A stretch of 64,000 nucleotides of DNA from a virus. A model generated the notes under the pieces. That model did no database searches and had not been told where the DNA came from. It saw only the letters and a list, made by a program, of their open reading frames with translations. Positions 2,339 to 60,310 of the stretch are shown here, one piece after another. The stretch lies in IMG/VR virus record IMGVR_UViG_3300045988_115788. One strand, given 5' to 3'. Position numbers and translations under genes: made by a program. The first letter of the stretch is position 1. Every line of letters begins with the position of its first letter.

Positions 2339-2510
2339 CATAACACTTTCAAGTTATTACAGATATGTACTGATATGTTAGTCAGGAATTTACGCCTATG
2401 GAGAGCACAAGAACTTGTGAGTAGTGATTGGCTTGTCAACACAAAAACATACTCGTTGAAGTAGGAATGGAACATAAAAGTTTATAACTTTTTATAAGTT
2501 TTCAGTAACG
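2339..2510 (+). ncRNA. possible remnant TnpB omega/reRNA scaffold and right end
   Basis: About 170-nt non-coding tail directly 3' of the truncated tnpB, where TnpB guide-RNA scaffolds are encoded. It shares only short blocks with the 3' flank of the intact tnpB. Unverified. Confidence 0.25.
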
Positions 2511-12071: not shown

Positions 12072-13256
12072 TTGGTACAAGTAATCAAACGTAACGGAGA
12101 TGTTGTTGATTTTCAACGAGACAAAATTTCTGTTGCAATCCAAAAGGCAATGAAAGAAGTTAGAGATGAAATCAATACTTATGAAGTCAGAGCAATAACT
12201 GATAAAGTAATTGACTCTATTGAACAACGAAAAGAAAATATTAATGTAGAAGAAATTCAAGATATTGTAGAACGTGCGCTTATGACTAGCGGCATGAAGG
12301 ATGTGGCGAAGAGTTACATTACTTATCGCTATTTGCATGGTCTTATTCGAGAATCAAACACTACTGATAGGACTATTAAAGAACTTATCAATGGTGAAAG
12401 CGAATATTGGAACAGTGAAAACAGCAATAAAAATCCAACACTTGTTACTACTCAAAGAGATTATATCGCAGGAATCACAAGTACAGATATTGCTAGACGT
12501 TTTTTACTACCCAAAGATGTTGTTGAAGCACATGATAAGGGCATTATTCATTTCCATGATATTGACTATTTTGCGCAAAAAAGTTTGACGAACTGTGAAT
12601 TAGTAAATCTTGAGGACATGTTGCAAAACGGAACGGTAGTCAATGGAGTTGGCATTGATAAGCCCCATAAGTTGCTTACTGCCGCTACAATCGCTACACA
12701 GATTATTGCAGCAGTAACAAGTTCTACTTATGGTGGGTGTACTATTAACCTTTCTCATTTGGCTCCATTCGTAAGAGATAGTTACAATATTTATTACAAA
12801 AAGTATGAGCAACGAGGTTTTAGTCCAAGTGAATGCCAAAAGTGGGCAGAGCAAGATACTAAGAAGGAAATTGAAGACGCAGTTCAAACCTTTAATTATC
12901 AAACTAATTCCATGACTAATACCAATGGCCAAGCTCCATTCTTGTCTGTGTTCATGTATCTCAATGACAATCCAGAATATATCAAAGAGACAGCAGCATT
13001 GATTAAGGAATTCTTTAATCAACGTATTCTAGGATTTAAGAACGAAGTTGGCCAATATATCACACCAGCCTTTCCAAAGCTATTGTATGTTTTGGATGAC
13101 AATAACATTACCGAGGATTCTGAATATTGGTATCTTACCCAACTTGCAGCAAAATGTACTGCTAAAAGAATGGTACCAGATTATATCTCTGCAAAAATTA
13201 TGCGAAGAGATAAAGTTGATAAGAATGGTAATGGTAATGTCTATGGCTGCATGGGT
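12072..13256 (+). CDS. nrdD: anaerobic ribonucleoside-triphosphate reductase NrdD, exon 1
   Basis: TTG start after AGGAG. ATP-cone-like N-terminus. The coding sense stops matching NrdD after ..NVYGCMG (13256), and an in-frame stop follows soon after. Confidence 0.85.
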
Positions 13257-13570
13257 CAGCGTAAACTACAGCTCATGTAAAATCCTTTGAACCGTGCTAA
13301 CGGGTGTCTATATGATATTTATTATATAGGCTAACGGTTAGGTCTTAATAACCCATTACACTATTAAGATGAGACCGTGGGAAGTTTAATCTTGCCACTT
13401 TATGACAAAGATTGAAAACCTGTATCGACCATCCCTGATGAATGTATGGGAGTAGGGCTGGAGATAAGCACCAGCAGTGTTTTAGGAAACGAAGCACTTG
13501 AAAACCAAAGCGGAGGACTATCGAAAGATAGAAGATATGGTCAGTGCCAATGGTGACATTGGATAACATG
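13257..13570 (+). mobile_element. group I intron (ORF-less) in nrdD
   Basis: 314 nt split the conserved GCMG|CRSFL. The 5' exon ends in U. An internal guide GCUCAUG (13271-13277) can pair with exon CAUGGGU, giving a U.G pair at the splice site. R-like GAGGACUAUCG (13513-13523) and S-like AAGAUAUGGUC (13532-13542) are present. The last nucleotide is G. Confidence 0.8.
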
Positions 13571-14467
13571 TGTAGAAGTTTTTTGACACCTTATGTAGAT
13601 GAGAATAACAAACCGAAATATTGGGGTCGATATAATCAGGGCGTCGTAACAATAAATCTTGTAGACGTTGCATTGTCTTCTGGCGGAGACTTTGATAAGT
13701 TTTGGCATTTGTTTGAAGAACGGACAGAATTATGTCACAAAGCATTACAGTGTAGACATGAACGAATTGCATTAGCTACATCTGATGTAGCTCCTATTTT
13801 ATGGCAACATGGCGCATTAGCAAGATTGCCAAAAGGAGCGCCAATTCACCCATTACTTCATAATGGCTATTCTACGCTCTCCCTCGGCTACGCTGGATTG
13901 TATGAGTGCGTTAAATATATGACCGGCGAATCTCATTCCCATGGAAAAGGATTTGATTTTGGCATTAAAGTTATGCAAGCACTCAATGATAAGTGTGCTA
14001 AATGGAAAGAGGCAGAAAAGATTGACTACTCGCTTTACGGCTCCCCCATTGAAAGCACTACCTACAAGTTTGCAAAATGCTTAAAAACAAGATTCGGCGA
14101 AATTAAAGACATTACAGACCATGATTACGTCACAAACAGCTATCATATTAATGTTCGTGAAGTAATTGACCCATTTGACAAACTTGCTATTGAGGCCAAA
14201 TATCAAAAATTAAGCCCTGGCGGAGCAATTAGCTATATTGAATGTGCCGATTTGACCAATAATATTCCTGCGGTTCTTGAAGTAATTAAATTCATTTATG
14301 ACAATATCATGTATGCAGAACTTAACACAAAAAGCGATTATTGCCAAGTATGCGGTTACGAACATGAAATTGAAATTATTGATGAAGATGGAGAACTTAA
14401 ATGGCGTTGTCCAAATTGCGGCAATGAAGACCAAAACAAGATGAATGTCGCTCGGAGGACTTGCGGT
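13571..14467 (+). CDS. nrdD: NrdD, exon 2
   Basis: Begins CRSFLTPY.., contains the C-terminal zinc ribbon CQVCG..CPNCG, and ends ..ARRTCG at a U (14467). Confidence 0.85.
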
Positions 14468-15348
14468 AAAGATATTGCCGCAGTAAAATGACTTAAATTC
14501 AGAGGAAACCTAAATCTTATATAGACATGGCAATTCTGAGCCAAGCTGATTTATATTATTTTATTATAGAAAGAGGTGATAATGGTGTTAGAACACAAAT
14601 GCGAAGTATGTGGTAGATTATATAGAAAAAAACTAAAAGCAGATGGGAAAATTGTATGTAATAAACATTATAAACAATTTAAAAAATATGGCAAATTTAC
14701 AGACCATTCCCCAAGAATACAAACGGACAAAAATAATATTACAATCGTTGGAGATTTAGCGTATATTGATTTATACGATAAACATTATGAAGTTATTGCA
14801 CAGGCAATAATTGACGCAGAAGATGTTAATCTTGTTAAGAATATTAAATGGAGATTGAATGGCAACGGATATGTTATGAACAATTCCTCAAAGCATACGA
14901 CATTTTTACATTCTTTGATAATGCATACTAAAGAATTAGTAGACCACAAAGATACTAATACACTAAACAACACAAAAGAAAATTTAAGAATCGCAACTAA
15001 AAGTCAAAACCAAATGAATGTAAATTATAAAGGATATTATCTGGTTAACAATAAATGGATTGTGCATATTAAGTTACATCAAAAGCAATTACATCTTGGA
15101 GTGTATTATATAGAAGAAGAGGCGCAATATGCAAGATGGTATGCGGAAAGAATTGTGTTCAAGGAATTTGCTTATCCAAAAGAAGAGCCATACATCCCAG
15201 AACATAGAAAAGCTCAAATACAAGAATATATAAATCAGAAGGTGCAGAGACTATAATAGTCACTATTGTCCTAACAATTAAAATGTATGGGAAATAGAAG
15301 GTATAGTCCACTCCCCTAATAAATATCGGGAAACCGAGGGTACAAAGG
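14468..15348 (+). mobile_element. group I intron with HNH homing-endonuclease ORF, in the nrdD glycyl-radical motif
   Basis: Splits RRTCG|YIGS. A guide GCCGCA (14477-14482) pairs with exon UUGCGGU (U.G at the splice site). R-like GCAGAGACUAUA (15244-15255) and S-like AAGGUAUAGUCC (15298-15309) are present. Ends in G (15348). Confidence 0.8.
14582..15256 (+). CDS. HNH homing endonuclease with AP2-like DNA-binding domain (intron-encoded)
   Basis: ATG 14582 follows AAGAGGTG. Motif HKDTNTLNNTKENLRIATKSQN (HNH_3 type) and an AP2-like YKGYYL..KWIVHI..LHLGVY segment. Confidence 0.75.
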   Translation: MVLEHKCEVCGRLYRKKLKADGKIVCNKHYKQFKKYGKFTDHSPRIQTDKNNITIVGDLAYIDLYDKHYEVIAQAIIDAEDVNLVKNIKWRLNGNGYVMNNSSKHTTFLHSLIMHTKELVDHKDTNTLNNTKENLRIATKSQNQMNVNYKGYYLVNNKWIVHIKLHQKQLHLGVYYIEEEAQYARWYAERIVFKEFAYPKEEPYIPEHRKAQIQEYINQKVQRL

Positions 15349-15439: not shown

Positions 15440-15988
15440 ATGAATTATTCTTTAATTAACAAAGTAGATATAGTAAATGGCCCAGGAATCAGAATTTCCC
15501 TTTTTGTTTCTGGCTGTAATAGACATTGTAAAAACTGTTACAACAAAGAAGCGCAAAATTTTGATAACGGAGAACCTTTTACTCAAGAAACATATAAAAC
15601 AATCTTAGAACATGTAGCAAAGACTCATTGTTCTGGACTATCCATTTTAGGCGGCGAACCATTAGACCAAGACGCAAATGGGTTAATCGCTTTATTTGAA
15701 CTTGTGCAAGACGTACACAAGCTAGGTAAAACTGTGTGGCTATGGACAGGATATACTTGGCAAGAAGTGTTTGATAAAATTGTAACAGACCCCAAAGCTT
15801 GTAATATGCGCCCTTATCTTCAACAAACTTTACTGTCTGAAGTTGATGTTGTAGTCGATGGGCCTTTTGTTGAAGATAGTAAAGACTTGTCTTTAGCTTT
15901 TAGAGGTAGCTCAAATCAAGGCATCATTGACGTGAAAAAGACTTTAGCAAACGAATACATTACTTTAGTTGAATATATGATTAGATAA
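15440..15988 (+). CDS. nrdG: anaerobic RNR activating protein NrdG (radical SAM)
   Basis: CNRHCKNCYN (CxxxCxxC) cluster and GGEPL motif. Lies immediately downstream of nrdD. Confidence 0.9.
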   Translation: MNYSLINKVDIVNGPGIRISLFVSGCNRHCKNCYNKEAQNFDNGEPFTQETYKTILEHVAKTHCSGLSILGGEPLDQDANGLIALFELVQDVHKLGKTVWLWTGYTWQEVFDKIVTDPKACNMRPYLQQTLLSEVDVVVDGPFVEDSKDLSLAFRGSSNQGIIDVKKTLANEYITLVEYMIR

Positions 15989-35300: not shown

Positions 35301-36681
35301 TTAAAATATCGTGTATTTTATCAAAGATGTCCATAGGCTTAGATTTCATTTTAGCAAGATAATCTTTTCGTTCGCAAAGAGGTATGAATCCATTATACAT
35401 CATCGACTCAATTTTCTTTGATTGAAGGTCAAGAAAAATCTTTAATTGTTTTTTAGAACAATAATAGACCCAACCACAATAATCATTCCAAACATATTTG
35501 ATATAACATTTAAAAGGTTTATTTTGTTGACTCAAATATTGAATGAAAGTAGATACAAACTTTTTATCCATATTATATATGGTTCGATAGCAACCAAAAT
35601 GTTTTGCATAGCCTCTCCAACATTGGTATGTTACACAAATATCATCTATTGACATTTTTCCCTCGTCAGCCCATTTCTTGAAAATTTTTAATTTTCTTCT
35701 AATTCTTTTAAGACTATCTTTATTCAATTTTGTTACGATTTTTCCACTATCTGTCAAAGTAAATCTAATTTTCAAAAAAGTAAAACTATGGTGCTTAAAA
35801 GGAGTTATGCGATTTTTCTTTTCGTTTATTTTTATGCCAACAGAATTGGCTAATATTTCAACAAAATTTTTTATCTCTTTTAGTTCTTCAAAAGAATTGC
35901 TGATTACATAACCATCATCCATATATCTGCCATAACCTTTTATGCGAAAAACATCTTTAATGTAATGGTCTATAAGATTAGCATAATCTAAAGCAATATT
36001 TTGTGATATTGGACTGCCTAATCCAACTCCAAATGGCCCCTTAGAATCATGTAAAGTAAGAAATTCATCAATAAATTTATCTCCAAGAACAATCAACTGT
36101 CTATCTTTTATATATTTTCTTAATTCCATTTTTGCACCTTCATGCGGAATTGAAGCAAAATATTTAGAAAAATCATATTGATAAATGCCTCCTTTATAAC
36201 CATACTTTCTATAATGATGCCGCAGTTGCTTTTTTAGCATCTGTATGGCAAAGTGGATACCTTTATTTTTCAACGAAGCTGAATTAGTTGAAACAAAACT
36301 TTTAGAATAAGCTTCTGTCATTATTTCGTTGCAAAAACACTTTTGAACCGCTCTATCTTCAATATTCAAAGCATGTATGTCTCTTATTTTTCCATGCTCA
36401 TTTGTTTTAAAGAAGCAAAAGCCATGAAATTTATAGGCATTAGCATCCATCTTTTTCTTTAATTCAAAAGACCTTATTAACAATTCATTTTCAAAATTTT
36501 GTACTGAAGTTTTCCATCTAACTCCTTTACAACATTCTTTTGATGCTCTATATAAATTTTCAAAAGAATAAACTTCATCATAACTTTTATTTACTATATT
36601 TCTTTTCTTTAAATCTCTTTTTGCTTTACGCCTTAAATATCTTTTCTCATGGCGCTCTTTACTTGTCAGAATTTTCACCAC
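35275..36681 (-). CDS. DGR reverse transcriptase
   Basis: 468 aa. RT motifs YQYDFSKYFASIPH (A), GVGLGSPISQNIA (the [I/L]GxxxSQ hallmark of DGR RTs) and GRYMDDGYVIS (YxDD). Lies adjacent to the TR and avd. Confidence 0.9.
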   Translation of the reverse strand: MVKILTSKERHEKRYLRRKAKRDLKKRNIVNKSYDEVYSFENLYRASKECCKGVRWKTSVQNFENELLIRSFELKKKMDANAYKFHGFCFFKTNEHGKIRDIHALNIEDRAVQKCFCNEIMTEAYSKSFVSTNSASLKNKGIHFAIQMLKKQLRHHYRKYGYKGGIYQYDFSKYFASIPHEGAKMELRKYIKDRQLIVLGDKFIDEFLTLHDSKGPFGVGLGSPISQNIALDYANLIDHYIKDVFRIKGYGRYMDDGYVISNSFEELKEIKNFVEILANSVGIKINEKKNRITPFKHHSFTFLKIRFTLTDSGKIVTKLNKDSLKRIRRKLKIFKKWADEGKMSIDDICVTYQCWRGYAKHFGCYRTIYNMDKKFVSTFIQYLSQQNKPFKCYIKYVWNDYCGWVYYCSKKQLKIFLDLQSKKIESMMYNGFIPLCERKDYLAKMKSKPMDIFDKIHDILNEPQIRKE

Positions 36682-36971
36682 TTTTTATTTTAATTTTTTC
36701 GTATAATTTTTAGTTTTGTTAAAAACTAAGATAATTTGCTAATTACATAACTGGTACCTATGAAATTTGTCTAAAATTATCAAACAACAAACCATGCAAG
36801 AAGCGTCCAGGACACAGTATCGAAAAAATAATTTAGGATGCCAAAGCAGAGCCAAGGATATTTCCCCCTTCTATGAAAAGATTATTTTCACCTAGCAAAA
36901 ACTAGGTTACTTCTCAATCCCAGTAGCCATCTATAACCAAAAAATGGCGGCTACTATTGGCATAGAATCAG

Positions 36972-48854: not shown

Positions 48855-51800
48855 TTATCTTCTCTTATAAGCTCTTTGGTTCGCAATATTGATTACTGCT
48901 TTCACAAAATCTTCAGCGTCATTTCCATTTTTAACATTGGGGAAAGACATTTGAACTCCGTTCATACTTATTCCACTTTGAGTATTGTTTACCAAGCTTT
49001 TTAATACCGAATCAGGAGTTAAAGCGCCCCAAGCAAACAAATTGCGAGTTAAATCATTAGGTATGACGCCATCACCAGAACCTAATACACCCAATTCTGG
49101 GCCGTTTTCTCCTAGAAGACTTAATCCAGGATTGGTATTTTTTTCAGTTCCTTTTTCGTATTTTCCAACACCTGCAACAGTATAAATGTTACCATTTTGA
49201 TTAACTGTGACTGAACCATCATTGTTTTTAGTCCAATAAGAGCCATCGCCGCCAGTCAATGTAGCGTAAGCTTTAGCGTTCTCAATAAAGTCTATACCTT
49301 TTTGAGAGGTGATATTATACGCTCCGCCAGAAGAATTATAACCAGTATATCGTTTTGTTTGACTACCGCCAGTACTTTGACCTGGTTGACTTATTGGTTT
49401 CTCAATTAGTTCAGACTCATAAGTACCGTCAGACTTTACTTTAGTAATTTTATAAGTGCCGCCAGCAGTAGTAACCCTGTCGCCAACTTTAAGCCCTCTG
49501 GGAGCTTTACCGTCATTTCCTACAGAAACCGTAGTTCCTTTAGATTCAGACCAGCTCACATCGGAAGGCGCAGGGTCATATCTAGCACCAGTTCCTTCAT
49601 AATCTTTATTAGTAATGTTATTTACTAACTCAGACTCGTAAGTGCCGTCATTTTTAACCTTGGTTATTCTGTAAGTTCCACCGGCAGTAACAACATTGTC
49701 GCCAACCTTTAAGCCGCTAGGAGCATTACCATTTTTACCTACTTGATAAGTTCTTCCGCTAGATTCAGTTTTAGGTGTTTCTGTAGCGCTAGAAACTTTG
49801 TCGTAAGTGCCGCCACGAGAAGCGTATTCTTTTCGAGTTTCGCTACTGATTTTTTTGGATTCATAAGTTCCGTCTTCATTAACCTTAATGATTTGGAACG
49901 TCCCGCCATCAGTAACTACCTTGTCACCAATTTTAAGCCCCTTGGGAGCTTTCCCATCTTTGCCCGCTTCATAAGTGCCAGAACCAAAGATTTCACCCTT
50001 GTCAATACGCTCTTGCATATTTTGGGCATCTTTAAGCTGTCTCATATATTCTTTATACTCAGAAACAAAATTAGAAAGATTTCTAATACGAGTATCCCAA
50101 TTCATCTTTTCAGAATTTATACCAAATTCTTGTTCGATAATTAGACGATTCTGTTCTTCTTGATAATCATCAACAACATTTTCCCACTCGTTTTTATACT
50201 CTTCCCATTTATTTATCTGTTCTTCAATATTTTTGACAGCTTCATCTTTTAGCTTTTCAAGACGGTCTTTCTCATCTTCTAGTGCTTTTTCACGTTCATA
50301 GCTTTCAAGATTTTTCTGCGCTTCACTAATTTCATCTATATCATCCGCATATTGGAATCTACCATCTTTGTAGACATAAACTTTCTTTTGTCGCGCTTTC
50401 GCTAGTTCATCTTGAAGCTCTTGTAACTTGATATTGTCTTCAATTTTATCGTTCTCTTCTTCAAGAGCTTTTATTTTTTCGTCGTAATAATCTTCCCAAT
50501 AATCTTTTTCTTCATTGAGGTCATCAATACGACGCTGTGCATCTTTAGCTACTTGCTCAAAAAGAAGTTCATACTTTTCTGTTTTGTTTTGAAGACCTTC
50601 TTCAAGCTCTTCATAATAGTTTTGCCATTCTTCTTTAGCCTTTTCTGCCGCTTCCGTTGCGGCATCAGCAATAGATTGAAATAGGTCTTGTGCATCGCCC
50701 TCAAGACTCCACCAACTGCTTTGAATTTCCCGAATAATAGTATCATTTTCATTGATACCCAATTTACGATAATATTCAGCTTGTTTGTGAAGTTCGGCTT
50801 GCATCGCTCTAATCTGAGCAATCTGCTCTTCTTCTGTTGCGCCATTCTTTTGCATTAGGAACAATCTATGTTCCATAATGTCAATTTGTTCAGAATAGAG
50901 TTTGTTTTGCTCTTCTAATTGCTTAGTAAAAGCTTCTGTGCGCTTATTTTGTGCATCAATAACAGCTTGAGCTAAACCTGCTCCAGAGCCAATCTTTTTG
51001 CTGATTTCTTTCGCTTGCTTCTCAAGGTCAGACTTCTTTAAATCAGAATAAGACCCCTTGGCGGTTTCGTATTGTTTAGTAACAGATTTAGTCCAATCAG
51101 CATAAGCATTGTTTACTTTTGGCAATTCAGGCTGTTTATTTTTATCAAAATCGCCCCAATGAGTCTTTTCAGAAGTAGACAATTTGCTAAGTAACTGGCG
51201 TGTAGTATCATTGTTATATACCTCTGCACCAGAAGGAAGTTTAACAATTTCTGGGCCTTCTTCACCAACAAGAATAGTACCTTCTTTAGTAACCGTACCA
51301 CCCGTAGCCATGCCGTGGATTGTATCTATATATTGAGCATTAGAAAGAGCGCCACTCCCAGCAGAAGCCGCTCCAGACGCAGAAGCTTTTAGATTTCTTA
51401 ATGCTGCTGCCGCCGCATTAGCTTTACCAACAATAGCAGTCAGGCTAGAAGATAAACCACTTACATTTAAAGTAAGATTACCAACACTTCTTGCAGATGC
51501 CGCAAAGCTTCTTAGTGCCGCACTTGCACTATTCGCCGCAGTTGCTACTTTTCTTAAAGCGCCAGAAGTTCTATTTGCTGGCCCAGCAACTTTACCCACA
51601 GCAGAAGACGCTTTAGAAGCACTAGAAGAAATTCTACTTAAAGTAGCACCGCAGCTAGACGCAGAAGTAGCTAGACTAGCGACTCCTGCACTGGCAGAAC
51701 TTGCCGCGCCCGAAACAATACTGAGAGAGGTAGATAGTAATGCGCCACTCCCTGCCGCAGAAGACAGGTTACTTGCAATAGAACTAATATTGACAGACGC

Positions 51801-54800
51801 TTGAGACGCCGCCATACTAACGCTATTCATGCTGCCAGCAATAGTTAGCATACTAGATGCCGCATTGCTTAGAGAAGCTGTAGCGGTTGTTACATTAGCC
51901 GCAAAAGTACCTAATGCAGTCCCCGCATTTCCAGAAGCAGTCCCTAGACTATTCATGTGAGTGACAGATTGACTAGACTGCGTAGTAAGAGTGATTAGTG
52001 CGGATGCCGCATTGTGAGCGCCGTCAGTGATGCCAGACATAGCATTGGAGGCACTTGTTGCAATAGAAGATAGAGAAGTATCTACTGTTGTTGCGCTAGT
52101 GCTAAGATTGGTCATGCTTTCGCTTACTTGACTGACAAGAGTATTTACTTGGACAAGCGTTCCTTTGACTCCAATAAGAGAGCCACTAACAGCAGTCAAG
52201 CTACTTGACGCATTAGAAAAAGCTTGTGCTAATCTTTGTCCTGCGTCACCTGCCGCTTGACCAAAATCAGCGATACTACTTGCCATTTTACTTGCAACAG
52301 TATTGATACTATTGAAAGTTTCAGTAACGCCAGCAGTTTGAGATTTTAAATTTGCAAAACCGCTAGAAAGTCCTGTTGCGCTATCATGAGCACCATCTAA
52401 CGCCGCTTTAATATTGTCTCTTAATACTTGACACTGTTGAGCCACTTCTACAACAGCATCACCAACAGACCTTATATTATCAACAGTGGTTTGAATAGAC
52501 GTAGCCATACTAGAGAAATTGCTACTAACAGAAGTAGACATGTTTCCTAGTCCCTGATTCACAGTACCAATAGCAGTAGAAATTTCTACAATCCGTCCTG
52601 CAAAATCAGTAAAATTAGAAGAAAGAGTTGCGGCATCTCCTGCAAATTTGCTAAACGAATCTCCCAGCCCATCAATCAATCCTGAATATTTTTCAATACC
52701 AGAAGAAAATACGTCAAAAGATTCAGCAATATTGTTTAGGCCACTCGTATCAACTTGAGCAGATTCAACAATTCTTTGATTAGCTTCTTCAAACTTTTCT
52801 GCTGCTTTAATTGCTTCTTCACCTATTGTTTTATAAGCATCGGAAGCACCTGCAACATCTACAGTTTGAACACCTTCATCAACAGCATCATTTACCGCTT
52901 GTTGGGCTTCACCAACCTGCTTCGCACCCTCTTTAGCATTTTCGCCAAGTTGTTTGTAGCTGGTTCCAGCAGCTTCCATTCCTCCGACAGCGCCAGATAA
53001 CAATTCACTAGCACTGCCAAACATTTTGCCGCCCTTTTCTGCTGTTTTGCCGCCTTCTTCTACACCTTTGCCGCTTTCTTTTGCCGCTTCGCCAAAATTA
53101 AATCCTTCGCCTCTCATGCCTGGGCCAACAAGTTGTTTGTTATTGATAATATCAATCCACTCAACCCACATTTTGGCAACAGTATCGCCATCTTCAGCCG
53201 CTTTTCTTGCTTGGTCAACAAGACTCTTCATCGCGTCGGTTTCAAAAACCTTGGGGTCAATTTTGCCGCCTTCCATAATGGTTTTCATTACATCGACCCA
53301 TTGTTTTGCGGCTTCATCTCCCTCTGCGGCAGATTTTTGTAATTGTTCACTAAATTGAAGCGCGCCATCACCATTTATATCAAACTTGGCTTCGTTAAGC
53401 TTGTCAATAACAGAAAGAATTTTTTGTGCGTATTCGTCACCGTTATCTGCGGCTTTCCTAAGATTATCTATCCAAGGGCCAAAAGCATCATCTTTAAGAT
53501 TAACAAAATCTATTTCGCCAGACGCAATTCCTTTAATGATTTCCATTAACTTCTTTGCGCCTTCATCCGTTGATTCAGCAAGAGTTTTGCCAAATCCTTC
53601 TGCAAAATTGGAAGAATCAGTTAAGGTTTTTGCTAACTCTCTAGTTTTGTTATCTATTTTAGAAATTTCATCGGCACTTTTCTTGGTTTCTTCAGCTGTA
53701 TTTGCATACGCCTCTGCCAACAATTTTTCTGCTTGTTCTTTGGACTTCGTGACGCCTAAACTTTCTAGCAAAGTGGCTAGACGGTCTTTATCCATATTTG
53801 CAAGTTGCGCTTCATTCATTTGGGTCAGCAAATAATCTTTGGCAATTTGTGTCATTGCCTCATCATATTTTTCTGCTGTCACCGAACCATCTTCAAACAT
53901 TTGTTGAAGGTCTGTAAGCCCCTCAGAAACAAAACCAGAAGCAGATAGAGAATTAACAGTATTAAGAACAGTTGTTAGTTCTTCATCAGTAGATTTTCCT
54001 TTTTCGCCAACACCTTGCATAGCATCAGCGAACCCTTGCAAAGCATCTTTCGCTGAATTTACAGCAGTGACTTGTTGAGCGTTAGTAATCTCACCATAAG
54101 CTTGAAGTTCAAAATCTGGGTCAAGTTCTCGCAAATATTTATACATATCTGCGTGTTTTTGTGTCCACTCATCCCCAGAAGAAACGGCTTCTTGTAACTG
54201 TTCTTCGTATTTTAATAAGGTGGCACTTAAATCATCTACTTGTTTATTAACATCTTCAATATTCCACTGACCACCAAGCAAACCAGCTACGCCATCTTTT
54301 TTCATAGTGATTTGCCCTGTTTGTAACATTTGCTTTTGGACTTCTTGTAACTCTTTTAAATCTTTTAAATCTTCTTTGTAGCTAGGGGTAGAAACACTTT
54401 CTAGTGGCCCTTTGCCTGTGTTCGCACCTACATAGGTGTGAACTCTGCCTTCTTCATCTGTCCATTTTTGTGAAGTATCTTCGCCAGGTGTTTCATCACC
54501 AAACATTTCTACGTTACGAATTTTTTCTTGAACTTCGTCAAGCTGTCCTTCAAAGTCCTTTAAGCGCTGTTGCCAAATTTGAACAAATCTTGGGTCTGCA
54601 CCAGACTCTTGCAACCGTTGAATTTCTGATTGACAAGTAGATATATTATCTTCTAGTTCTTCAGCAGAAGCATTAAGCTTTCCTAAAGGAGACTCTGCTT
54701 TAGTTATGTCATAAGCTTGTTTAATAAGAACTATTAGAGCGGCAATAGCAATAGACAAAGGTAAAGCGGCTTCACCAAGGGAGGAAAAGAAGCCAGATAC

Positions 54801-55766
54801 TTTTTCTCCCATTGAACTACTAGCTTCTCCAACATCGTCCATAACATCGCCGACATCATCAATGTTGTCCTTAACTTCATCAGCAATGTCTCCCATGTCA
54901 CCGAGCAGATTTTCTGCATCGCTTATACCATCACTAAAGTTACCAAATTTATTGCCGACATCAAATAGTTCATCAAAAGAATCGCTTACATCATCAATAC
55001 CGTCGGTAATATTTTCAGTAATATCGCCAACTTCTTCAAGCCCATTTCCAAAATTGCCAAATTTATTGCCAACATCAAATAATTCGTCAAAAGAATCTCC
55101 TGTCTCTGTTACTGTGTCTTTGACATTGACTAATGTATTTTCAGCATTTTGAATACCGTTTCCAAAATTACCAAACTGATTACCAACATCAAACAATTCA
55201 TCAAAAGAAGATTCTACAATATTTACCGTATCCGCTGCACCGCTAAAAGCATTAGAAATTGTATTTCCTGCGTTACTTGCGGCATTAGCTATATTAGACA
55301 CTGTGTTTGCTGTATTAGAAGCAGCAGTTGTTACCGTGTTTATTGCGTTTGCCGCAGTTGTTGCTCCTGTACCAATATTAGCAAAAATATCACCAAAATT
55401 AGCAAACTGAGAAACCAGTTTACTAATAGTTGGAGCAAATTTGCCAATACCACCAGTAAGAACACCAGTAAGAACGCCAAACTGCGTTGCTACTCTGCTA
55501 ATATCGCCTAGGGGTCCTTCAGAAGTCAGTGTTGAAAACACACTATTAAGTACATCCAATGCAGACTTCATTGCATCAGAATTTAAAACAGAAGTTGCAA
55601 ACTCCTGAAATGTTGATTTGAGGTTTGAAAGTTTTCCTTCAAAACTCTCCATATATCTTTCATTCTCTTGAGCGGCTGACCCTTGAGAATTAAGTGCTGT
55701 TTCAGTCGCGGCAATAGCAGTATCGAAATTATCCATAATTGCCGCAAGATTCTGGCTCTGATTAGC
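48855..55766 (-). CDS. tail tape measure protein, exon 3
   Basis: Begins ANQSQNLAAIMDNFD... when joined to exon 2. Long helical and low-complexity protein with internal repeats. About 2303 aa in this exon. Confidence 0.85.
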   Translation of the reverse strand, partial: ANQSQNLAAIMDNFDTAIAATETALNSQGSAAQENERYMESFEGKLSNLKSTFQEFATSVLNSDAMKSALDVLNSVFSTLTSEGPLGDISRVATQFGVLTGVLTGGIGKFAPTISKLVSQFANFGDIFANIGTGATTAANAINTVTTAASNTANTVSNIANAASNAGNTISNAFSGAADTVNIVESSFDELFDVGNQFGNFGNGIQNAENTLVNVKDTVTETGDSFDELFDVGNKFGNFGNGLEEVGDITENITDGIDDVSDSFDELFDVGNKFGNFSDGISDAENLLGDMGDIADEVKDNIDDVGDVMDDVGEASSSMGEKVSGFFSSLGEAALPLSIAIAALIVLIKQAYDITKAESPLGKLNASAEELEDNISTCQSEIQRLQESGADPRFVQIWQQRLKDFEGQLDEVQEKIRNVEMFGDETPGEDTSQKWTDEEGRVHTYVGANTGKGPLESVSTPSYKEDLKDLKELQEVQKQMLQTGQITMKKDGVAGLLGGQWNIEDVNKQVDDLSATLLKYEEQLQEAVSSGDEWTQKHADMYKYLRELDPDFELQAYGEITNAQQVTAVNSAKDALQGFADAMQGVGEKGKSTDEELTTVLNTVNSLSASGFVSEGLTDLQQMFEDGSVTAEKYDEAMTQIAKDYLLTQMNEAQLANMDKDRLATLLESLGVTKSKEQAEKLLAEAYANTAEETKKSADEISKIDNKTRELAKTLTDSSNFAEGFGKTLAESTDEGAKKLMEIIKGIASGEIDFVNLKDDAFGPWIDNLRKAADNGDEYAQKILSVIDKLNEAKFDINGDGALQFSEQLQKSAAEGDEAAKQWVDVMKTIMEGGKIDPKVFETDAMKSLVDQARKAAEDGDTVAKMWVEWIDIINNKQLVGPGMRGEGFNFGEAAKESGKGVEEGGKTAEKGGKMFGSASELLSGAVGGMEAAGTSYKQLGENAKEGAKQVGEAQQAVNDAVDEGVQTVDVAGASDAYKTIGEEAIKAAEKFEEANQRIVESAQVDTSGLNNIAESFDVFSSGIEKYSGLIDGLGDSFSKFAGDAATLSSNFTDFAGRIVEISTAIGTVNQGLGNMSTSVSSNFSSMATSIQTTVDNIRSVGDAVVEVAQQCQVLRDNIKAALDGAHDSATGLSSGFANLKSQTAGVTETFNSINTVASKMASSIADFGQAAGDAGQRLAQAFSNASSSLTAVSGSLIGVKGTLVQVNTLVSQVSESMTNLSTSATTVDTSLSSIATSASNAMSGITDGAHNAASALITLTTQSSQSVTHMNSLGTASGNAGTALGTFAANVTTATASLSNAASSMLTIAGSMNSVSMAASQASVNISSIASNLSSAAGSGALLSTSLSIVSGAASSASAGVASLATSASSCGATLSRISSSASKASSAVGKVAGPANRTSGALRKVATAANSASAALRSFAASARSVGNLTLNVSGLSSSLTAIVGKANAAAAALRNLKASASGAASAGSGALSNAQYIDTIHGMATGGTVTKEGTILVGEEGPEIVKLPSGAEVYNNDTTRQLLSKLSTSEKTHWGDFDKNKQPELPKVNNAYADWTKSVTKQYETAKGSYSDLKKSDLEKQAKEISKKIGSGAGLAQAVIDAQNKRTEAFTKQLEEQNKLYSEQIDIMEHRLFLMQKNGATEEEQIAQIRAMQAELHKQAEYYRKLGINENDTIIREIQSSWWSLEGDAQDLFQSIADAATEAAEKAKEEWQNYYEELEEGLQNKTEKYELLFEQVAKDAQRRIDDLNEEKDYWEDYYDEKIKALEEENDKIEDNIKLQELQDELAKARQKKVYVYKDGRFQYADDIDEISEAQKNLESYEREKALEDEKDRLEKLKDEAVKNIEEQINKWEEYKNEWENVVDDYQEEQNRLIIEQEFGINSEKMNWDTRIRNLSNFVSEYKEYMRQLKDAQNMQERIDKGEIFGSGTYEAGKDGKAPKGLKIGDKVVTDGGTFQIIKVNEDGTYESKKISSETRKEYASRGGTYDKVSSATETPKTESSGRTYQVGKNGNAPSGLKVGDNVVTAGGTYRITKVKNDGTYESELVNNITNKDYEGTGARYDPAPSDVSWSESKGTTVSVGNDGKAPRGLKVGDRVTTAGGTYKITKVKSDGTYESELIEKPISQPGQSTGGSQTKRYTGYNSSGGAYNITSQKGIDFIENAKAYATLTGGDGSYWTKNNDGSVTVNQNGNIYTVAGVGKYEKGTEKNTNPGLSLLGENGPELGVLGSGDGVIPNDLTRNLFAWGALTPDSVLKSLVNNTQSGISMNGVQMSFPNVKNGNDAEDFVKAVINIANQRAYKRR
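49400..49975 (-). repeat. three tandem about 40-aa coding repeats in the tape measure C-terminal region
   Basis: GKDGKAPKGLKIGDKVVTDGGTFQIIKVNEDGTYESKKIS / GKNGNAPSGLKVGDNVVTAGGTYRITKVKNDGTYESELV / GNDGKAPRGLKVGDRVTTAGGTYKITKVKSDGTYESELI. Confidence 0.8.
54925..55215 (-). repeat. three tandem coding repeats (xSFDELFDVGNxFGNFxxG) in the tape measure
   Basis: Read directly from the translated ORF and its nucleotide repeats. Confidence 0.8.
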
Positions 55767-56146
55767 CATTATTAACTAAATTAAATGTTTTTCAACATTT
55801 CTAGTTTCTGACTATATCTTCACTATTTCGTTAAATAGTGTCAGTGCGCTTCGGATTGCTCCTACTCTACTCGCTTCGTCCGCTTATGCGTCTTATTCTG
55901 CCCATACTATAACACAGACAGTTACATTTATCAAGAATTTTTTCTTGATTGCTTTCGATAGTCGATGAAGGTTATACCGTATTTCAACGGCATCTTCCCT
56001 GCGGATTAACCATATATTTTTATCTCTTTTACAATCTCTTAGTTAATTACTCTAAGCCCCTATCTATGTTACCATGATAAGTTTGTGTATAAAACTTTAG
56101 GTTGTCCCCGTCAATTCACACTGAACAGGCGCTAACTTTAGAGTCC
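55767..56146 (-). mobile_element. group I intron (ORF-less) in the tape measure gene
   Basis: 380 nt lie between ..FLNVQAG and ANQSQNL... The 5' exon GCAGGU pairs with guide GCCUGU (+ 56125-56130), giving a U.G pair. Q AAUCCGCAGG (+ 55998-56009), R-like CACUGACACUAU (+ 55836-55847) and S AAGAUAUAGUC (+ 55810-55820) are present. Ends in G. Confidence 0.8.
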
Positions 56147-56704
56147 ACCTGCTTGAACGTTTAAGAAATACTTTTTTTGGTCTTCATCCAAAGTATTCCA
56201 TTTACCAGCCAAATCGCCTAGCGTATCATATAAAGAACGAAGATTGCCTTTTTCATCTTTAATTGCAATTCCGTGGTCTTTATAAAACGCAATTAGTTTT
56301 TGACCTGTACTTGAACTGTCATCAAGAATTTGATTATATCGAGACTGTACCGACACCAAAGCTCTCGATACTTTATTGCTGTTTCTAGTAATTTCTGTAC
56401 CTGCTGTTAGAAGACCTAGTGTTTCCTCGTAGGTAACGTTGCCAACAGCCATCGCAGAAGAAGCGTTACCGATAGATTGAGACAAATCACTAGAAGAAAC
56501 TGCAAAATTATTGCTAACAGAATTTAATGCGTCCACGACGTGCGTCGCTTCACTAGCAGGCTTATTAAATGCTTTTAATTGAGAAATAATAAAACTTGCC
56601 GCGTCACCAGCACTCATAGCATCATCTGCTACGTTTTGGAACATAGTTGCGGTTTTTGCTAAATTTGCACTTTCGGTATCTGAATATCCAGACTTTTTAA
56701 ATTC
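56147..56704 (-). CDS. tail tape measure protein, exon 2
   Basis: In-frame from EFKKSGYSDTESANLAKTATMFQNVADD... to ..FLNVQAG. Matches the TP901-type tape-measure core by eye. Confidence 0.8.
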
Positions 56705-57787
56705 CTATCTATTAAGCAGTGTCGTTAATACTGCTCAGAGTAAAAAGACAATATTTTTTCTTTGAATGTACCATCATCTATTTGCCAATAAGGTATTCTT
56801 AATAAAGGTACATGATGAGTTTTGCAATAATAATCTTTAATTTTATCATTTTTTTGAGTTTCTTTAAAATATTCTTGGAAATGCCTTCCTCCATCAACTT
56901 CTATTAACTTTTTGTTTTCTTTATTGAAATTCAAGCAAAAATCAAAAGGAAGACATCTTTTATTGCCCCTACAATCAGTTATTTTAAATTCTCGTTTAAA
57001 AGGAATATTTTGTTCATTTAAAAAATCAGCGACTATTTTTTTCAAACTGCTTAATTTTCTATGTCCAGAAGCATCATAATCACCTGTATTCAATGCTCTA
57101 AATTTTTCAATATCTCGCAAAAAATTATTTCTACAAACAAAATATTGCACACCAAAATCGTCTTCTATTAAAATATTAGTTTTATTAAAAGTCGGTTTAT
57201 TATATCCTTTTATTTTTCTTGGTTTTATATCTTTAATAGGGGTTATTACTTTAAAGCCTTCTTTTTCAAAATCTTCTATGATTTTTTCTAAATCAAGCCT
57301 ACGCTCTTTCCAACTAGCGGAATGGGCGCATTTTGTACAAAGTCCTGGGAAAACTTGCCGTTTTAAAGTATCCCACTTTACATCGTAACGAGAATTACAT
57401 TCTCTACAAAAAACACTCACGACAATTCTTGCTTTTCCTGATTTTTTTATATTTCTAAAAGAAATCAAATGAATTTTATTATCATCACAAAACTTATAAA
57501 TTTCTTGTTTTGTTTTTTCTTGCATTTTTTACTCCTTCTTATACTCTCGCATAAGTTTAGACTATATCTTCATCCTAAAAAAGGATGTGGGGCACTTCAA
57601 GTTCACTTGAACCTTACAGATATTATTTCAATCTTAGTCGTTGAACCATATTTTTAAATCAATAAAAACTGGATGCTGATTTGCCAATTCTTAGCGTTGT
57701 TACTCTTTGGTAGCTAAGACTCTAAGGTTTGTTTCAGCAATTCACCCCATTCACTTACTTATATTACTATAAGCTCAACCAAATCAT
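56705..57787 (-). mobile_element. group I intron with endonuclease ORF in the tape measure gene
   Basis: Lies between ..SEMIDAAT and EFKKSG... Exon GCAACU pairs with guide GGUUG (+ 57776-57780). P-like GAAUUGCUGAAAC, Q-like AAUCAGCA, R GUUCAACGACUAAGA (+ 57632-57647) and S GAAGAUAUAGUC (+ 57560-57571) are present. The ORF lies 3' of the core. Ends in G (AUAG|GAA). Confidence 0.8.
56725..57525 (-). CDS. intron-encoded putative homing endonuclease (Zn-ribbon N-terminus, Vsr/DUF559-like PD-(D/E)XK C-terminus)
   Basis: 266 aa with CRECN..CTKC and, C-terminally, LPFDFCL...LIEVDGGRHF, which resembles the DUF559/Vsr-type nuclease core. Family assignment is tentative. Confidence 0.5.
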   Translation of the reverse strand: MQEKTKQEIYKFCDDNKIHLISFRNIKKSGKARIVVSVFCRECNSRYDVKWDTLKRQVFPGLCTKCAHSASWKERRLDLEKIIEDFEKEGFKVITPIKDIKPRKIKGYNKPTFNKTNILIEDDFGVQYFVCRNNFLRDIEKFRALNTGDYDASGHRKLSSLKKIVADFLNEQNIPFKREFKITDCRGNKRCLPFDFCLNFNKENKKLIEVDGGRHFQEYFKETQKNDKIKDYYCKTHHVPLLRIPYWQIDDGTFKEKILSFYSEQY

Positions 57788-58165
57788 AGTTGCGGCATCA
57801 ATCATCTCAGAACCAGTTCGTCCAACTTCTCGTCCCATAACTTGAAGCTTCTTAACGTACTTATCGAGACTGTCACCCTGTAAATCTGATACCTTTTTAA
57901 ATTCTGTTAGTGATTTATCAACAGTTAAAATTTCGTTAGCAAAAGACTTGAGAACTCCAATACTAGAGTTCAATACCATGTTTGCTTCTTGCAAAGTTAG
58001 TCCAGATGCCGCCGCACTCTTGTTCATAGAATTTAAATTCTTTGTTGCCGCAGATGTATCAAGACTGACTTTGCTTCCTTTTCCTGTTACTTTTTCAAGT
58101 TGAGATTGTATATCAGAAGTATCAAGCTCAACCCCTACCAATATCTTCCAATCAGATGAAGCCAT
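57788..58165 (-). CDS. tail tape measure protein, exon 1
   Basis: MASSDWKILVGVELDTSDIQSQLEKV... to ..GSEMIDAAT. The tool ORF then runs into intron sequence (MIWLSL*). Confidence 0.8.
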
Positions 58166-58737: not shown

Positions 58738-60033
58738 TCATAGAGGAGCTAAATCATCTCTTGTATCCACCGTACACCTTTCAATTAAATAAGTTTTGTT
58801 TGTTTCTTTTAATTTTAATTTCTTAAAACTGACAGAGCCTTTGTTAACCTTTTGGCCATTTAAATTTCTAATATCAAAGAAACCTGATGCCCTTCTACCA
58901 AATATAAAATATTCGTAATTCTGATATTCTACTCTATCAAAGAGTCTAAAACCTTTGACTGTATACTCAGCTTGATTACGTTTTCGGATGCCACCTTTTA
59001 ACGTATTAGCTTTATATAGCTGACGATTATGACATCTGACCTTTTTATAGTAAAAATACTCTCCACTACTCTTAGCCTTTGGATTTCCACTAATACAACG
59101 TGCATCTAAATAATGTGTCTTTGGTAGATTGTTTTTTATACGAGTGTTTTTCGTAATATAACCATAAGTCATAGAAACATTTGCATAAATTTCCTTTAGC
59201 CGATTATAAAATACCCATCTCATAACATTCATAAAGGCCGCGTGTTTATAAGAGTTTGTTATTTTTGGCTCCCAACCCCAAAGCCTATTAGCTTCTTTTT
59301 TGTGATATTTACTATCATTGCAAGTGTTACAAAGTGTAATCAGACTTGAGGGTTTGTTTGTATGGTCGCCTTTCCAGTAGGCATGGTGGTGTGTTACAAG
59401 AATTGAATCTTTCGATTTACCTTTACACCATTGACAGGTATAATTATCTCGGTGGAAAATATATTCCCTGATATTCCAACCTGTAAGCTCACCTTTCTGA
59501 TAGTCCATCCCTTTTGGAATGGGTTCACCTTCCATTTGAGCTTTAAGCAGTTGCATATCAAACGATGCTGTTTCTACTACAATTTTTGTAATAGGCAACA
59601 TCTTGTGTACTTTTTCTACCATTGCAAAATGAGTCTGAATCTTATGTTCAATACTTGGAGTCAACCAACCTTTGTGTTTGCTGGATACTCGATTGTTAAA
59701 TCGTCTTTTTCTGTAACGGGTTTTACGATTTCGCCTTGAGTGACGAAATTTTCTTCGTGCCTCAAGTAATTTTGTTATATCGTTACGAAGTTCTACATCA
59801 GCTTCAAACAATACTTTATCTTTTGTAGTTGCAGATAATCCAATATGCTTAGAACCGGCATCTACACCTAATGTAATATTTTGTATGCAATTTGTTGTAT
59901 TATACAACAACTGTATCGTAAATGGACAACGCTTAATAACCTTGGCTTTGTTTATCTTTAAAAGCCTTCTTACCTTTCCGTGTCTGTTTGTTGGCATAAG
60001 TGGTTGTCCGTTTTTGTTAAGTACATATACCAT
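58738..60033 (-). CDS. iscB: IscB (OMEGA-family RNA-guided nuclease, Cas9 ancestor type)
   Basis: 431 aa from ATG 60033 (AAGGAG 9 nt upstream). PLMP motif NGQPLMPT, RuvC-I LGVDAGSKHIG, Arg-rich bridge helix RRKFRHSRRNRKTRYRKRRF, RuvC-II IVVETASFD, HNH HRDNYTCQWC...LITLCNTCN, and RuvC-III THYLDARC. Confidence 0.8.
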   Translation of the reverse strand: MVYVLNKNGQPLMPTNRHGKVRRLLKINKAKVIKRCPFTIQLLYNTTNCIQNITLGVDAGSKHIGLSATTKDKVLFEADVELRNDITKLLEARRKFRHSRRNRKTRYRKRRFNNRVSSKHKGWLTPSIEHKIQTHFAMVEKVHKMLPITKIVVETASFDMQLLKAQMEGEPIPKGMDYQKGELTGWNIREYIFHRDNYTCQWCKGKSKDSILVTHHHAYWKGDHTNKPSSLITLCNTCNDSKYHKKEANRLWGWEPKITNSYKHAAFMNVMRWVFYNRLKEIYANVSMTYGYITKNTRIKNNLPKTHYLDARCISGNPKAKSSGEYFYYKKVRCHNRQLYKANTLKGGIRKRNQAEYTVKGFRLFDRVEYQNYEYFIFGRRASGFFDIRNLNGQKVNKGSVSFKKLKLKETNKTYLIERCTVDTRDDLAPL

Positions 60034-60042
60034 AACAAACAC

Positions 60043-60310
60043 TCCTTTTCTTTAATAGTGATATGTTGTATGCTATAAGCCAGTACATATCAAACTGTAA
60101 GATACCTTCGCCTATGTTAATAAGAGGTTTTATATCGGCAACACTGTTCCTACCCATCAGAACTGTTTAACCACCGACCTTAGAGCAAAGGGCTAGGTAT
60201 AACACCCTTTGGTAACTATATATTCTCTTTTAACGTAGTGTTTGAAACACTTAGGCTAGTCAATAAAAGCTTTTGCAAGCCTGCGACTTTAGTCGTGGGT
60301 TATTGACTAT
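60043..60310 (-). ncRNA. candidate IscB omega-RNA
   Basis: About 265-nt ORF-free region directly 5' of iscB, the known location of IscB omega-RNAs. Hand-folded helices: TAGTCAATAA (60309-60300) pairs with TTATTGACTA (60266-60257), enclosing CGAC-UAAA-GUCG and GCUU-GCAA-AAGC hairpins. The ends are not determined. Confidence 0.55.

Follow-up and report, generated by a model that had tools for sequence, protein, structure and literature searches.

Group I introns of 250–500 nt that lack an open reading frame (ORF) are common in phages. In Bacillus cereus-group prophages, introns of this class (TMP-IVS1, IVS2 and IVS3a/b) interrupt tape-measure genes at three sites per gene, with IA1 or IA2 cores and with some copies devoid of an endonuclease (Tourasse & Kolsto 2008, PMC2504315). 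Near-identical cores are found there at different sites with altered P1 and P10, and an early in-frame stop codon lies inside the intron (PMC2504315). A tape-measure intron is also listed for Lactobacillus phage JCL1032 (PMC2504315), and ORF-less introns of ∼350 nt have been proposed in phage tail genes (PMC4124061).

The window considered here is a stretch of 64,000 nt of viral DNA (IMG/VR record IMGVR_UViG_3300045988_115788), and its tape-measure gene is interrupted twice. The second interruption (56146..55767, minus strand) is very probably a phage IA-type group I intron without ORF, located between codons 312 and 313, and its excision would give a protein of 2,615 aa. With the B. cereus-group introns it shares the type of host gene, the phage IA class, the occurrence of several in-frame introns per gene and the early stop, as well as the presence of cores at two different sites (96% identical between the window and its relative L101). 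The phage lineage is another one, the nearest isolates being Enterocloster phages with ∼42% identity in the tape-measure protein. The likeness concerns gene type, class and pattern, and intron 2 repeats the described tape-measure intron pattern in another phage lineage. More generally, it has in common with other phage group I introns the ribozyme class, consensus Q, R and S elements, the P7.1 and P7.2 hairpins and a location in conserved parts of essential genes.

Organization of the interrupted gene

All genes in the tape-measure part of the window lie on the minus strand. The initial annotation had described a 380-nt ORF-less group I intron between ..FLNVQAG and ANQSQNLAAIM.., in a three-exon gene encoding ∼2,615 aa, and both strings and coordinates were recovered on that strand. 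The gene is organized as follows.

58165..57788, minus strand: exon 1 of the tape-measure gene (126 codons)
57787..56705, minus strand: intron 1, a group I intron of 1,083 nt with a 266-aa endonuclease-like ORF (57525..56725); RF00028 gives 59.7 bits on 57795..57538
56704..56147, minus strand: exon 2 (186 codons)
56146..55767, minus strand: intron 2, read as an ORF-less group I intron of 380 nt, its ends fixed by the empty site of L101 and by the U.G and terminal-G rules
55766..48858 (..48855 with the stop codon), minus strand: exon 3 (2,303 codons and stop)

The ORF upstream of the insert reads ..KKYFLNVQAG and then GL before a stop codon at 56138, two codons inside the insert, while the sequence directly 3′ of it, GCT AAT CAG.., encodes ANQSQNLAAIM. 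The insert has to be removed: translation otherwise ends at this stop, and exon 3 offers no ribosome-binding site of its own and no conserved start. When it is deleted in silico, ..CAA GCA GGT meets GCT AAT CAG.. in frame; the predicted ligated DNA is GCAGGT joined to GCTAATCAG, and the corresponding RNA junction of the spliced message would be ..CAAGCAGGU joined to GCUAAUCAG.. (also written ..UUAAACGUUCAAGCAGGU joined to GCUAAUCAGAGCCAG..). The three exons joined computationally add up to the expected length (126 + 186 + 2,303 = 2,615 aa) without any internal stop. In this product the Pfam PhageMin_Tail domain covers residues 107–305, and so crosses junction 1 and reaches junction 2. The tryptic peptide predicted across junction 2 is YFLNVQAGANQSQNLAAIMDNFDTAIAATETALNSQGSAAQENER, and that across junction 1 contains ..EMIDAATEFK. 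As for coding capacity, ORFs inside the insert do not exceed 20 aa on the sense strand or 42 aa on the antisense strand, so that the insert was rightly described as ORF-less and holds no intron-encoded endonuclease gene.

Intron 1 separates ..EMIDAAT from EFKKSGYSD.., two stretches that adjoin each other in Enterocloster phage PMBT24 and in L101, and has a group I core of its own, scoring 59.7 bits with RF00028 (above the gathering score of 50) when 271 nt are searched alone. Its 266-aa ORF may encode a PD-(D/E)xK-type nuclease, as read from a PFDF..IEVDG..H motif. Pfam gave only sub-threshold DUF matches for this ORF, and a search of PDB sequences gave no match.

Splice sites and internal guide

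The elements that define the two splice sites of intron 2 are the following.

56153..56147, minus strand: 5′ strand of P1, AGCAGGU, the last 7 nt of exon 2, with U56147 in the U.G pair at the 5′ splice site
56136..56131, minus strand: P10 guide GUUAGC, pairing with GCUAAU, the first 6 nt of exon 3 (55766..55761)
56130..56124, minus strand: internal guide sequence GCCUGUU, the 3′ strand of P1, pairing with exon AGCAGGU
55767, minus strand: terminal (omega) G of intron 2, which with the preceding AU forms an accidental ATG (55769..55767); in the intron of relative L051, ending ..AAUAACG, the G is kept

Exon AGCAGGU and guide GCCUGUU form seven pairs, with U56147 opposite a G at the splice site; the shorter guide first proposed (GCCUGU, 56130..56125, pairing with GCAGGU through the same U.G) is part of this helix. 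At the other end, intron 2 terminates in ..AAUAAUG, and the GUUAGC located immediately 5′ of the guide is complementary to the start of exon 3. The two guides form one stretch of 13 nt, GUUAGC-GCCUGUU (GUUAGCGCCUGUU, 56136..56124), that pairs continuously with the ligated junction AGCAGGU-GCUAAU, P1 abutting P10. Among all 13-mers of the 64-kb window, both strands included, this stretch alone can pair with ligated junction 2, and a guide of this kind arises in 39 of 500,000 shuffles of the first 40 nt of the intron. An intron at the same insertion site in relative L128 carries exon GCGGGU and guide GCCCGU, a compensatory change in P1.

The predicted catalytic core

Between the guide and the terminal G, the core elements follow one another in the canonical group I order.

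56123..56117, minus strand: 5′ strand of P3, CAGUGUG, from the Rfam alignment, followed by J3/4 AAU (56116..56114)
56113..56107, minus strand: 5′ strand of P4, UGaCGGG, with partner UCCGCA, from the Rfam alignment
56103..56008, minus strand: P5 (AACC/GGUU) and its three-hairpin extension P5a-c, from folding and family covariation
56007..55998, minus strand: Q element AAUCCGCAGG, the 3′ strand of P4 and the beginning of P6
55999..55969, minus strand: P6 (GG/CC) and the P6a hairpin AUGCCGU..ACGGUAU, from the Rfam alignment, folding and six P6 combinations in the family
55969..55956, minus strand: R element UUCAUCGACUAUCG, with the 5′ strand of P7, GACUA, at 55963..55959, from the Rfam alignment
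55949..55930, minus strand: P7.1 hairpin between P7 and P3′, from unconstrained folding
55921..55898, minus strand: P7.2 hairpin between P7 and P3′, from unconstrained folding
55848..55842, minus strand: 3′ strand of P3, CGCACUG, from the Rfam alignment and a family permutation test
55840..55821, minus strand: P8 hairpin CACUAUUU-AACG-AAAUAGUG, from the Rfam alignment, folding and relatives
55820..55810, minus strand: S element AAGAUAUAGUC, J8/7 and the 3′ strand of P7, UAGUC
55806..55774, minus strand: P9 hairpin, from the Rfam alignment and folding; it has the sole stem substitution of L051, C-G to U.G

Searched on 431 nt, the RF00028 model (Intron_gpI) aligns over model positions 1–253 with 28.9 bits and E = 1.4e-5, for a gathering score of 50. 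This alignment assigns P3 (CAGUGUG/CGCACUG), J3/4 AAU, P4, P5, P6, P8, P9, R UUCAUCGACUA and S GAAGAUAUAGUC. The lowered score goes together with two insertions, one of 88 nt in P5 and another of 110 nt between P7 and P3′. A scan of the whole window at the gathering threshold and a scan of 6 kb at E ≤ 10 returned zero group I matches. This is an effect of the speed filters in long scans and not an absence of introns, since the same scans also missed intron 1 in spite of its 59.7 bits when searched alone.

Of the core strings named in the initial annotation, those for Q and S were found in place. The string given as ‘R-like’, CACUGACACUAU, is present at 55846..55835 but corresponds to the 3′ strand of P3 (CGCACUG) and the start of P8; the true R is the UUCAUCGACUAUCG identified through the Rfam alignment. 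The exact 11-mer of S occurs twice in the window, once per tape-measure gap. The RF00028 consensus is reproduced without change in the P7 strands GACUA/UAGUC and in J8/7 AAGAUA, and the G-C pair of P7 is presumably the guanosine-binding site, by analogy with G264-C311 of Tetrahymena. A point against the group I reading is that P7, as modeled, lacks the 5′-strand bulge of the Tetrahymena intron; its extra nucleotide appears to be on the 3′ strand.

Unconstrained folding of intron 2 recovers P1, P3, P6a, P7.1, P7.2, P8 and P9, with a z-score of −3.35 and none of 100 shuffles equally stable; a constrained fold was run with the P7 strands left unpaired because P3 and P7 form a pseudoknot. The core comprises the P4-P6 domain, the P3-P7 pseudoknot and P8, and is accompanied by covariation in the family. 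Hairpins P7.1 and P7.2 are the hallmark of group I subgroup IA. Both lie between P7 and P3′ in intron 2 and both are kept by compensatory changes in L128 and in Enterocloster phage CB457P1. The modeled structure is thus like that of subgroup IA, and more precisely IA2-like, the latter assignment following solely from the presence of P7.1 and P7.2.

Given this structure, established group I chemistry leads us to infer catalysis and splicing in vivo along a conventional pathway. The tape-measure gene would be transcribed as a single pre-mRNA, in which the RNA of intron 2 would fold into the P3–P9 core while the guide GUUAGC-GCCUGUU would keep both exons in place, the 3′ end of exon 2 through P1 and its U.G splice-site pair and the first nucleotides of exon 3 through P10. 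Exogenous guanosine would attack the 5′ splice site at U56147, and the freed 3′-OH of the exon would then attack after the terminal G 55767, joining ..CAA GCA GGU and GCU AAU CAG.. in frame through transesterification and exon ligation. Removal of intron 2 and of the ORF-bearing intron 1 would yield one mRNA and one tape-measure protein of 2,615 aa.

Empty sites and homologous introns in relatives

Alleles without the insert exist in related phages. The two flanking translations joined at junction 2 and used as a query give a single ungapped tblastn piece against tape-measure genes annotated in Enterocloster phages (42% identity) and in many Bacillus and Lactococcus phages. In PMBT24, for example, ..YYASLIGGKTQVDVVTAILKNFNTAIEATDTAINSAGSAMTENEKYLDS.. 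aligns opposite ..KYFLNVQAG joined to ANQSQNLAAIMDNFDTAIAATETALNSQGSAAQENERYMES.. of the window. In L101 (IMG/VR contig 3300045988_133080), the gene is uninterrupted at junction 2 and encodes ..KKYFINIQAGANQSQNLAAILGNFDTAV..; its DNA, ..CAGGCAGGTGCTAATCAGAGCCAGAA.., is identical to the ligated exons of the window across the junction, and the predicted ligated sequence ..GCAGGTGCTAATCAGAGCCAGAA.. is found exactly. The gene of another relative, L127, is likewise uninterrupted at this site. The ligated exons are therefore reproduced by L101 at the nucleotide level; at the protein level they are matched by L127, PMBT24 and Bacillus phages. The DNA comparison leaves an ambiguity of 1 nt in the boundary because intron 2 and exon 3 both start with G, and the limits 56146..55767 follow from the group I rules that the 5′ exon ends in U and the intron in G.

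Homologous introns occur both at the same site and elsewhere. The intron of L008 is 100% identical to that of the window, and the one of L051, at the same site, is 98% identical, with seven or eight substitutions that fall in loops or change Watson–Crick pairs into G.U; pairing is kept in all stems. In L128 (IMGVR_UViG_3300045988_093517), an intron with a 78%-identical core (989–∼2540) interrupts the same codon position (..IAG and TNQ.. vs ..QAG and ANQ.. in the window) and carries a 368-aa ORF after P7′, where the window copy has its 33-nt P9 hairpin. The C-terminal domain of this ORF resembles the ORF of window intron 1 (35% identity, E = 2e-13). A third situation is found in L101, which has an intron (426–1016) after codon 186 whose core is 96% identical to that of the window over nt 31–305, with P1, P3, P8 and P9 replaced; the surrounding exons are 68–83% identical to those of the window. 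L127 contains a homologous intron (1946–2500) at this second site of L101, also after codon 186. None of the homologous introns of L101, L127, L128 and CB457P1 is annotated in public records. Intron 2 is probably derived from a homing-endonuclease-bearing intron by loss of the endonuclease gene; a cycle of endonuclease gain and loss fits, since the ORF is absent from the window copy and an ORF-bearing homologue occupies the same site in L128.

Covariation and conservation of the intron RNA

The P4-P5abc-P4′ pattern of intron 2 is present in at least 120 IMG/VR contigs, and also in 19 representative bacterial genomes of several phyla. Helices were taken by anchors; MAFFT alignments were misaligned for 25 ORF-less members (in the 3′ half) and for five close relatives (in the 5′ part). 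Among 60 non-redundant representatives, 93.3% of the cells of P5 and P5a-c are paired, compared with 69.8% for shuffled and ∼40% for slid partners. Changes on both sides affect 476 cells vs 145, and none of 500 shuffles reaches the observed values. Compensatory changes affect 24 of the 32 pairs of the P5 domain in these representatives. The family also contains six complementary dinucleotide combinations in P6 and six complementary pentamer pairs in P7, including GAACA/UGUUC, GCAUA/UAUGC, GAUUA/UAAUC and GACCA/UGGUC, while P4 is invariant because it was fixed by the search pattern.

For P3, partners located next to P8 form on average 5.23 of 7 pairs vs 4.43 ± 0.11 after permutation, a value reached in 0 of 2,000 permutations; this test was restricted to the position adjoining P8. 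Searching all 70 nt upstream of S for a complement of the P3 5′ heptamer had no discriminating power, and a rank test on duplex energies was weakly significant (p = 0.014). In the five close relatives, compensatory changes are seen in P1, P3, P5a, P6, P6a, P7, P7.1, P7.2 and P8, with almost no broken pairs. P3 reads UAGGGUG/CGCCCUA in L101 and CAGACUU/GAGUCUG in L128 and CB457P1, and the P7 of L128 is GAACA/UGUUC; the L128 helices differ from those of the window and are still complementary.

In one further contig, L104 (IMGVR_UViG_3300027899_000880), two copies of the intron-core pattern lie ∼340 nt apart (8226–8773), which suggests tandem or twin introns of the same family in one gene.

These data bear on the possibility that the insert is a decayed group I relic, dead for splicing, in a gene that is permanently split into separate polypeptides or has become a pseudogene. 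Loss of the endonuclease ORF and an RF00028 score below the gathering score would fit such decay. Yet every core helix is intact, as are the conserved strings of Q, R and S, and the substitutions that separate the window from L051 and L101 keep pairing, which indicates ongoing selection on the intron RNA. The exons, moreover, are in frame and conserved, exon 3 has no ribosome-binding site and in L051 no start codon either, and the tape-measure protein is essential for tail assembly. A dead relic is accordingly improbable, and an intron that is still excised remains by far the better reading.

The ATG at the 3′ splice site

Downstream of the insert, an ORF of 2,304 aa begins with MANQSQNLAAIM.. 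at 55769. Its ATG, formed at the 3′ splice site by the last nucleotides of intron 2, had been regarded as an artefact from the beginning, and the comparison with L051 bears this out. The 98%-identical intron of that relative ends in AAUAACG, with no ATG and no replacement start codon, and no Shine–Dalgarno sequence was found upstream of the ATG at 55769. For these two reasons the start of the 2,304-aa ORF is artefactual. By comparison, a neighboring real start, that of the 266-aa ORF of intron 1, is preceded by AAGGAG.

The same observations weigh on a simpler interpretation, in which 56146..55767 is a plain intergenic spacer between two tail genes, the second being the 2,304-aa ORF read from ATG 55769, perhaps from a promoter in the spacer. 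The ATG stands exactly at the start of the long ORF, and two sigma-70-like matches (10/12) lie on the sense strand inside the insert; such matches are frequent in this AT-rich DNA, with 16 found vs 9.5 expected. Against this, homologues encode both parts in a single protein that runs through the junction without a gap, the start lacks the Shine–Dalgarno sequence seen before the 266-aa ORF as well as conservation in L051, and the sequence between the two ORFs is a conserved structured RNA with covariation. An intergenic spacer is thus very unlikely.

Any other element (a miniature transposon, a small RNA gene, a group II intron or a site of translational bypass) is the least credible of all, for although the insert is short, ORF-less and variably present among relatives, RF00028 is the only Rfam family that matches it, no group II signature was found, and its ends show neither terminal inverted repeats nor target duplication and fit the group I splice-site rules. 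Individual candidates were rejected on the same grounds: a transposon for want of such repeats and duplication, and a group II intron for its wrong size and lack of a match. An intein was discarded in view of the stop codons in the insert. Ribosomal hops known to us are far shorter than 380 nt, a length that rules out this mechanism.

The group I intron is consequently the reading retained. It agrees with the class assigned in the initial annotation, and the evidence for it combines empty-site alleles, homologous introns with compensatory changes and a full-length RF00028 alignment at 28.9 bits (gathering score 50).

Related introns in other phages

A first homologue outside the immediate relatives is found in Staphylococcus Twortvirinae. 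Over nt 27–190 (∼160 nt), intron 2 is 72–73% identical to the sequence that splits the endolysin gene of these phages (vB_SauH_DELF3, LC576631; vB_ScaM-V1SC04, OP297178). The similarity extends over P3–P7 with the same P4-P5abc architecture, and the Twortvirinae insert matches RF00028 at model positions 57–150. It differs from intron 2 in its endolysin host gene, in an ORF annotated with an AP2 domain and in unrelated P1, P8 and P9; the intervening sequence itself is unannotated. The lysK intron of phage K (O'Flaherty et al. 2004) is one that we take to be of the same kind. Experimental splicing of this staphylococcal intron was sought in the literature, with nothing usable found.

A closer parallel is the tape-measure intron of Enterocloster phage CB457P1 (OP172753; 3528–4694), whose core has 72.5% identity to that of intron 2 over 240 nt and whose guide shares the motif GCCUGU. 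Its removal gives exactly the PMBT24 protein ..IGGKTQVDVVTAIL.., so that the sister phage PMBT24 (OQ326496) represents the intron-less allele. Unlike intron 2, the CB457P1 intron lies 11 nt further downstream in codon phase 2, measures ∼1.17 kb, contains ORFs, has an extra hairpin between P4 and P5 and lacks the bulged A of P4. In the annotation of CB457P1 the tape-measure gene appears as distinct hypothetical proteins, and one of them extends into the intron.

Other elements in the window

Several other RNA or endonuclease elements were noted in the window. The gene for anaerobic ribonucleotide reductase (nrdD) is split at position 264 of the Pfam NRDD profile by a gap of 263 nt (13281–13543, plus strand) between ORFs 12072..13280 and 13544..14491. 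The gap contains R GUAUCGACCAUCC, S GAAGAUAUGGUCAG and P7 GACCA/UGGUC, and RF00028 gives a weak full-length match (13304..13563, 19.1 bits, E = 0.0096). An ORF-less group I intron, the third in the window, is the probable identity of this gap. An HNH_3 endonuclease ORF (14576..15256, plus strand) lies between nrdD and a radical-SAM activase gene (15440..15988), with R- and S-like strings GCAGAGACUAUAA ... GAAGGUAUAGUCC directly after it (region 14576–15320, plus strand). This ORF represents a free-standing homing endonuclease, or else it belongs to a further intron-like element.

In the structural module, a HEARO/omega-RNA (60307..60097, minus strand, 152 bits) is followed by a 434-aa protein with RRXRR and HNH domains (region 58738–60307), which looks like an IscB-like RNA-guided nuclease. 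The pair is located just upstream of a RuvC-like ORF of 174 aa and of the tape-measure gene. In PMBT24 and CB457P1 a RuvC-like gene also immediately precedes the tape-measure gene. Other Rfam matches above threshold are an RT-2 RNA (36674–36924, minus strand, 93.4 bits) and a RAGATH-18 RNA (2395–2467, plus strand, 67.6 bits).

Annotation, mobility and evolution of the intron family

For annotation, the finding means that one tape-measure protein of 2,615 aa encoded by three exons replaces three ORFs, which affects predicted tail length and proteomic searches. It also points to a practical weakness of Rfam scans of whole windows, which missed both tape-measure introns although one of them exceeds the gathering score when searched alone. 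Given this failure and the at least 120 IMG/VR contigs with the P4-P5abc-P4′ pattern, phage introns of this IA family are probably widely unannotated.

The relatives together provide a natural series for endonuclease loss and site movement, in which the site may be empty or hold an intron with or without an ORF, and in which the same core recurs at other sites. Homologous copies occupy at least four positions, and the position between codons 126 and 127 holds a different intron. As seen above, a 96%-identical core is located between codons 186 and 187 of L101, in exons of 68–83% identity. The choice of sites appears to track complementarity to the guide GCCUGU, the targets being GCAGGU, GCGGGU and CCAGGU. 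It may be speculated that intron 2 spread by co-conversion with intron 1, located 558 bp upstream.

As a tentative proposal, to which we give well below even chances, the N-terminal domain of the tape-measure protein in this phage group may serve as a hotspot in which a single ribozyme lineage actively switches sites. Such a pattern, if true, would not be predicted by classical endonuclease homing alone and would imply RNA-guided (reverse-splicing-like) transposition, or hitch-hiking of intron 2 on the endonuclease of its neighbor, intron 1.
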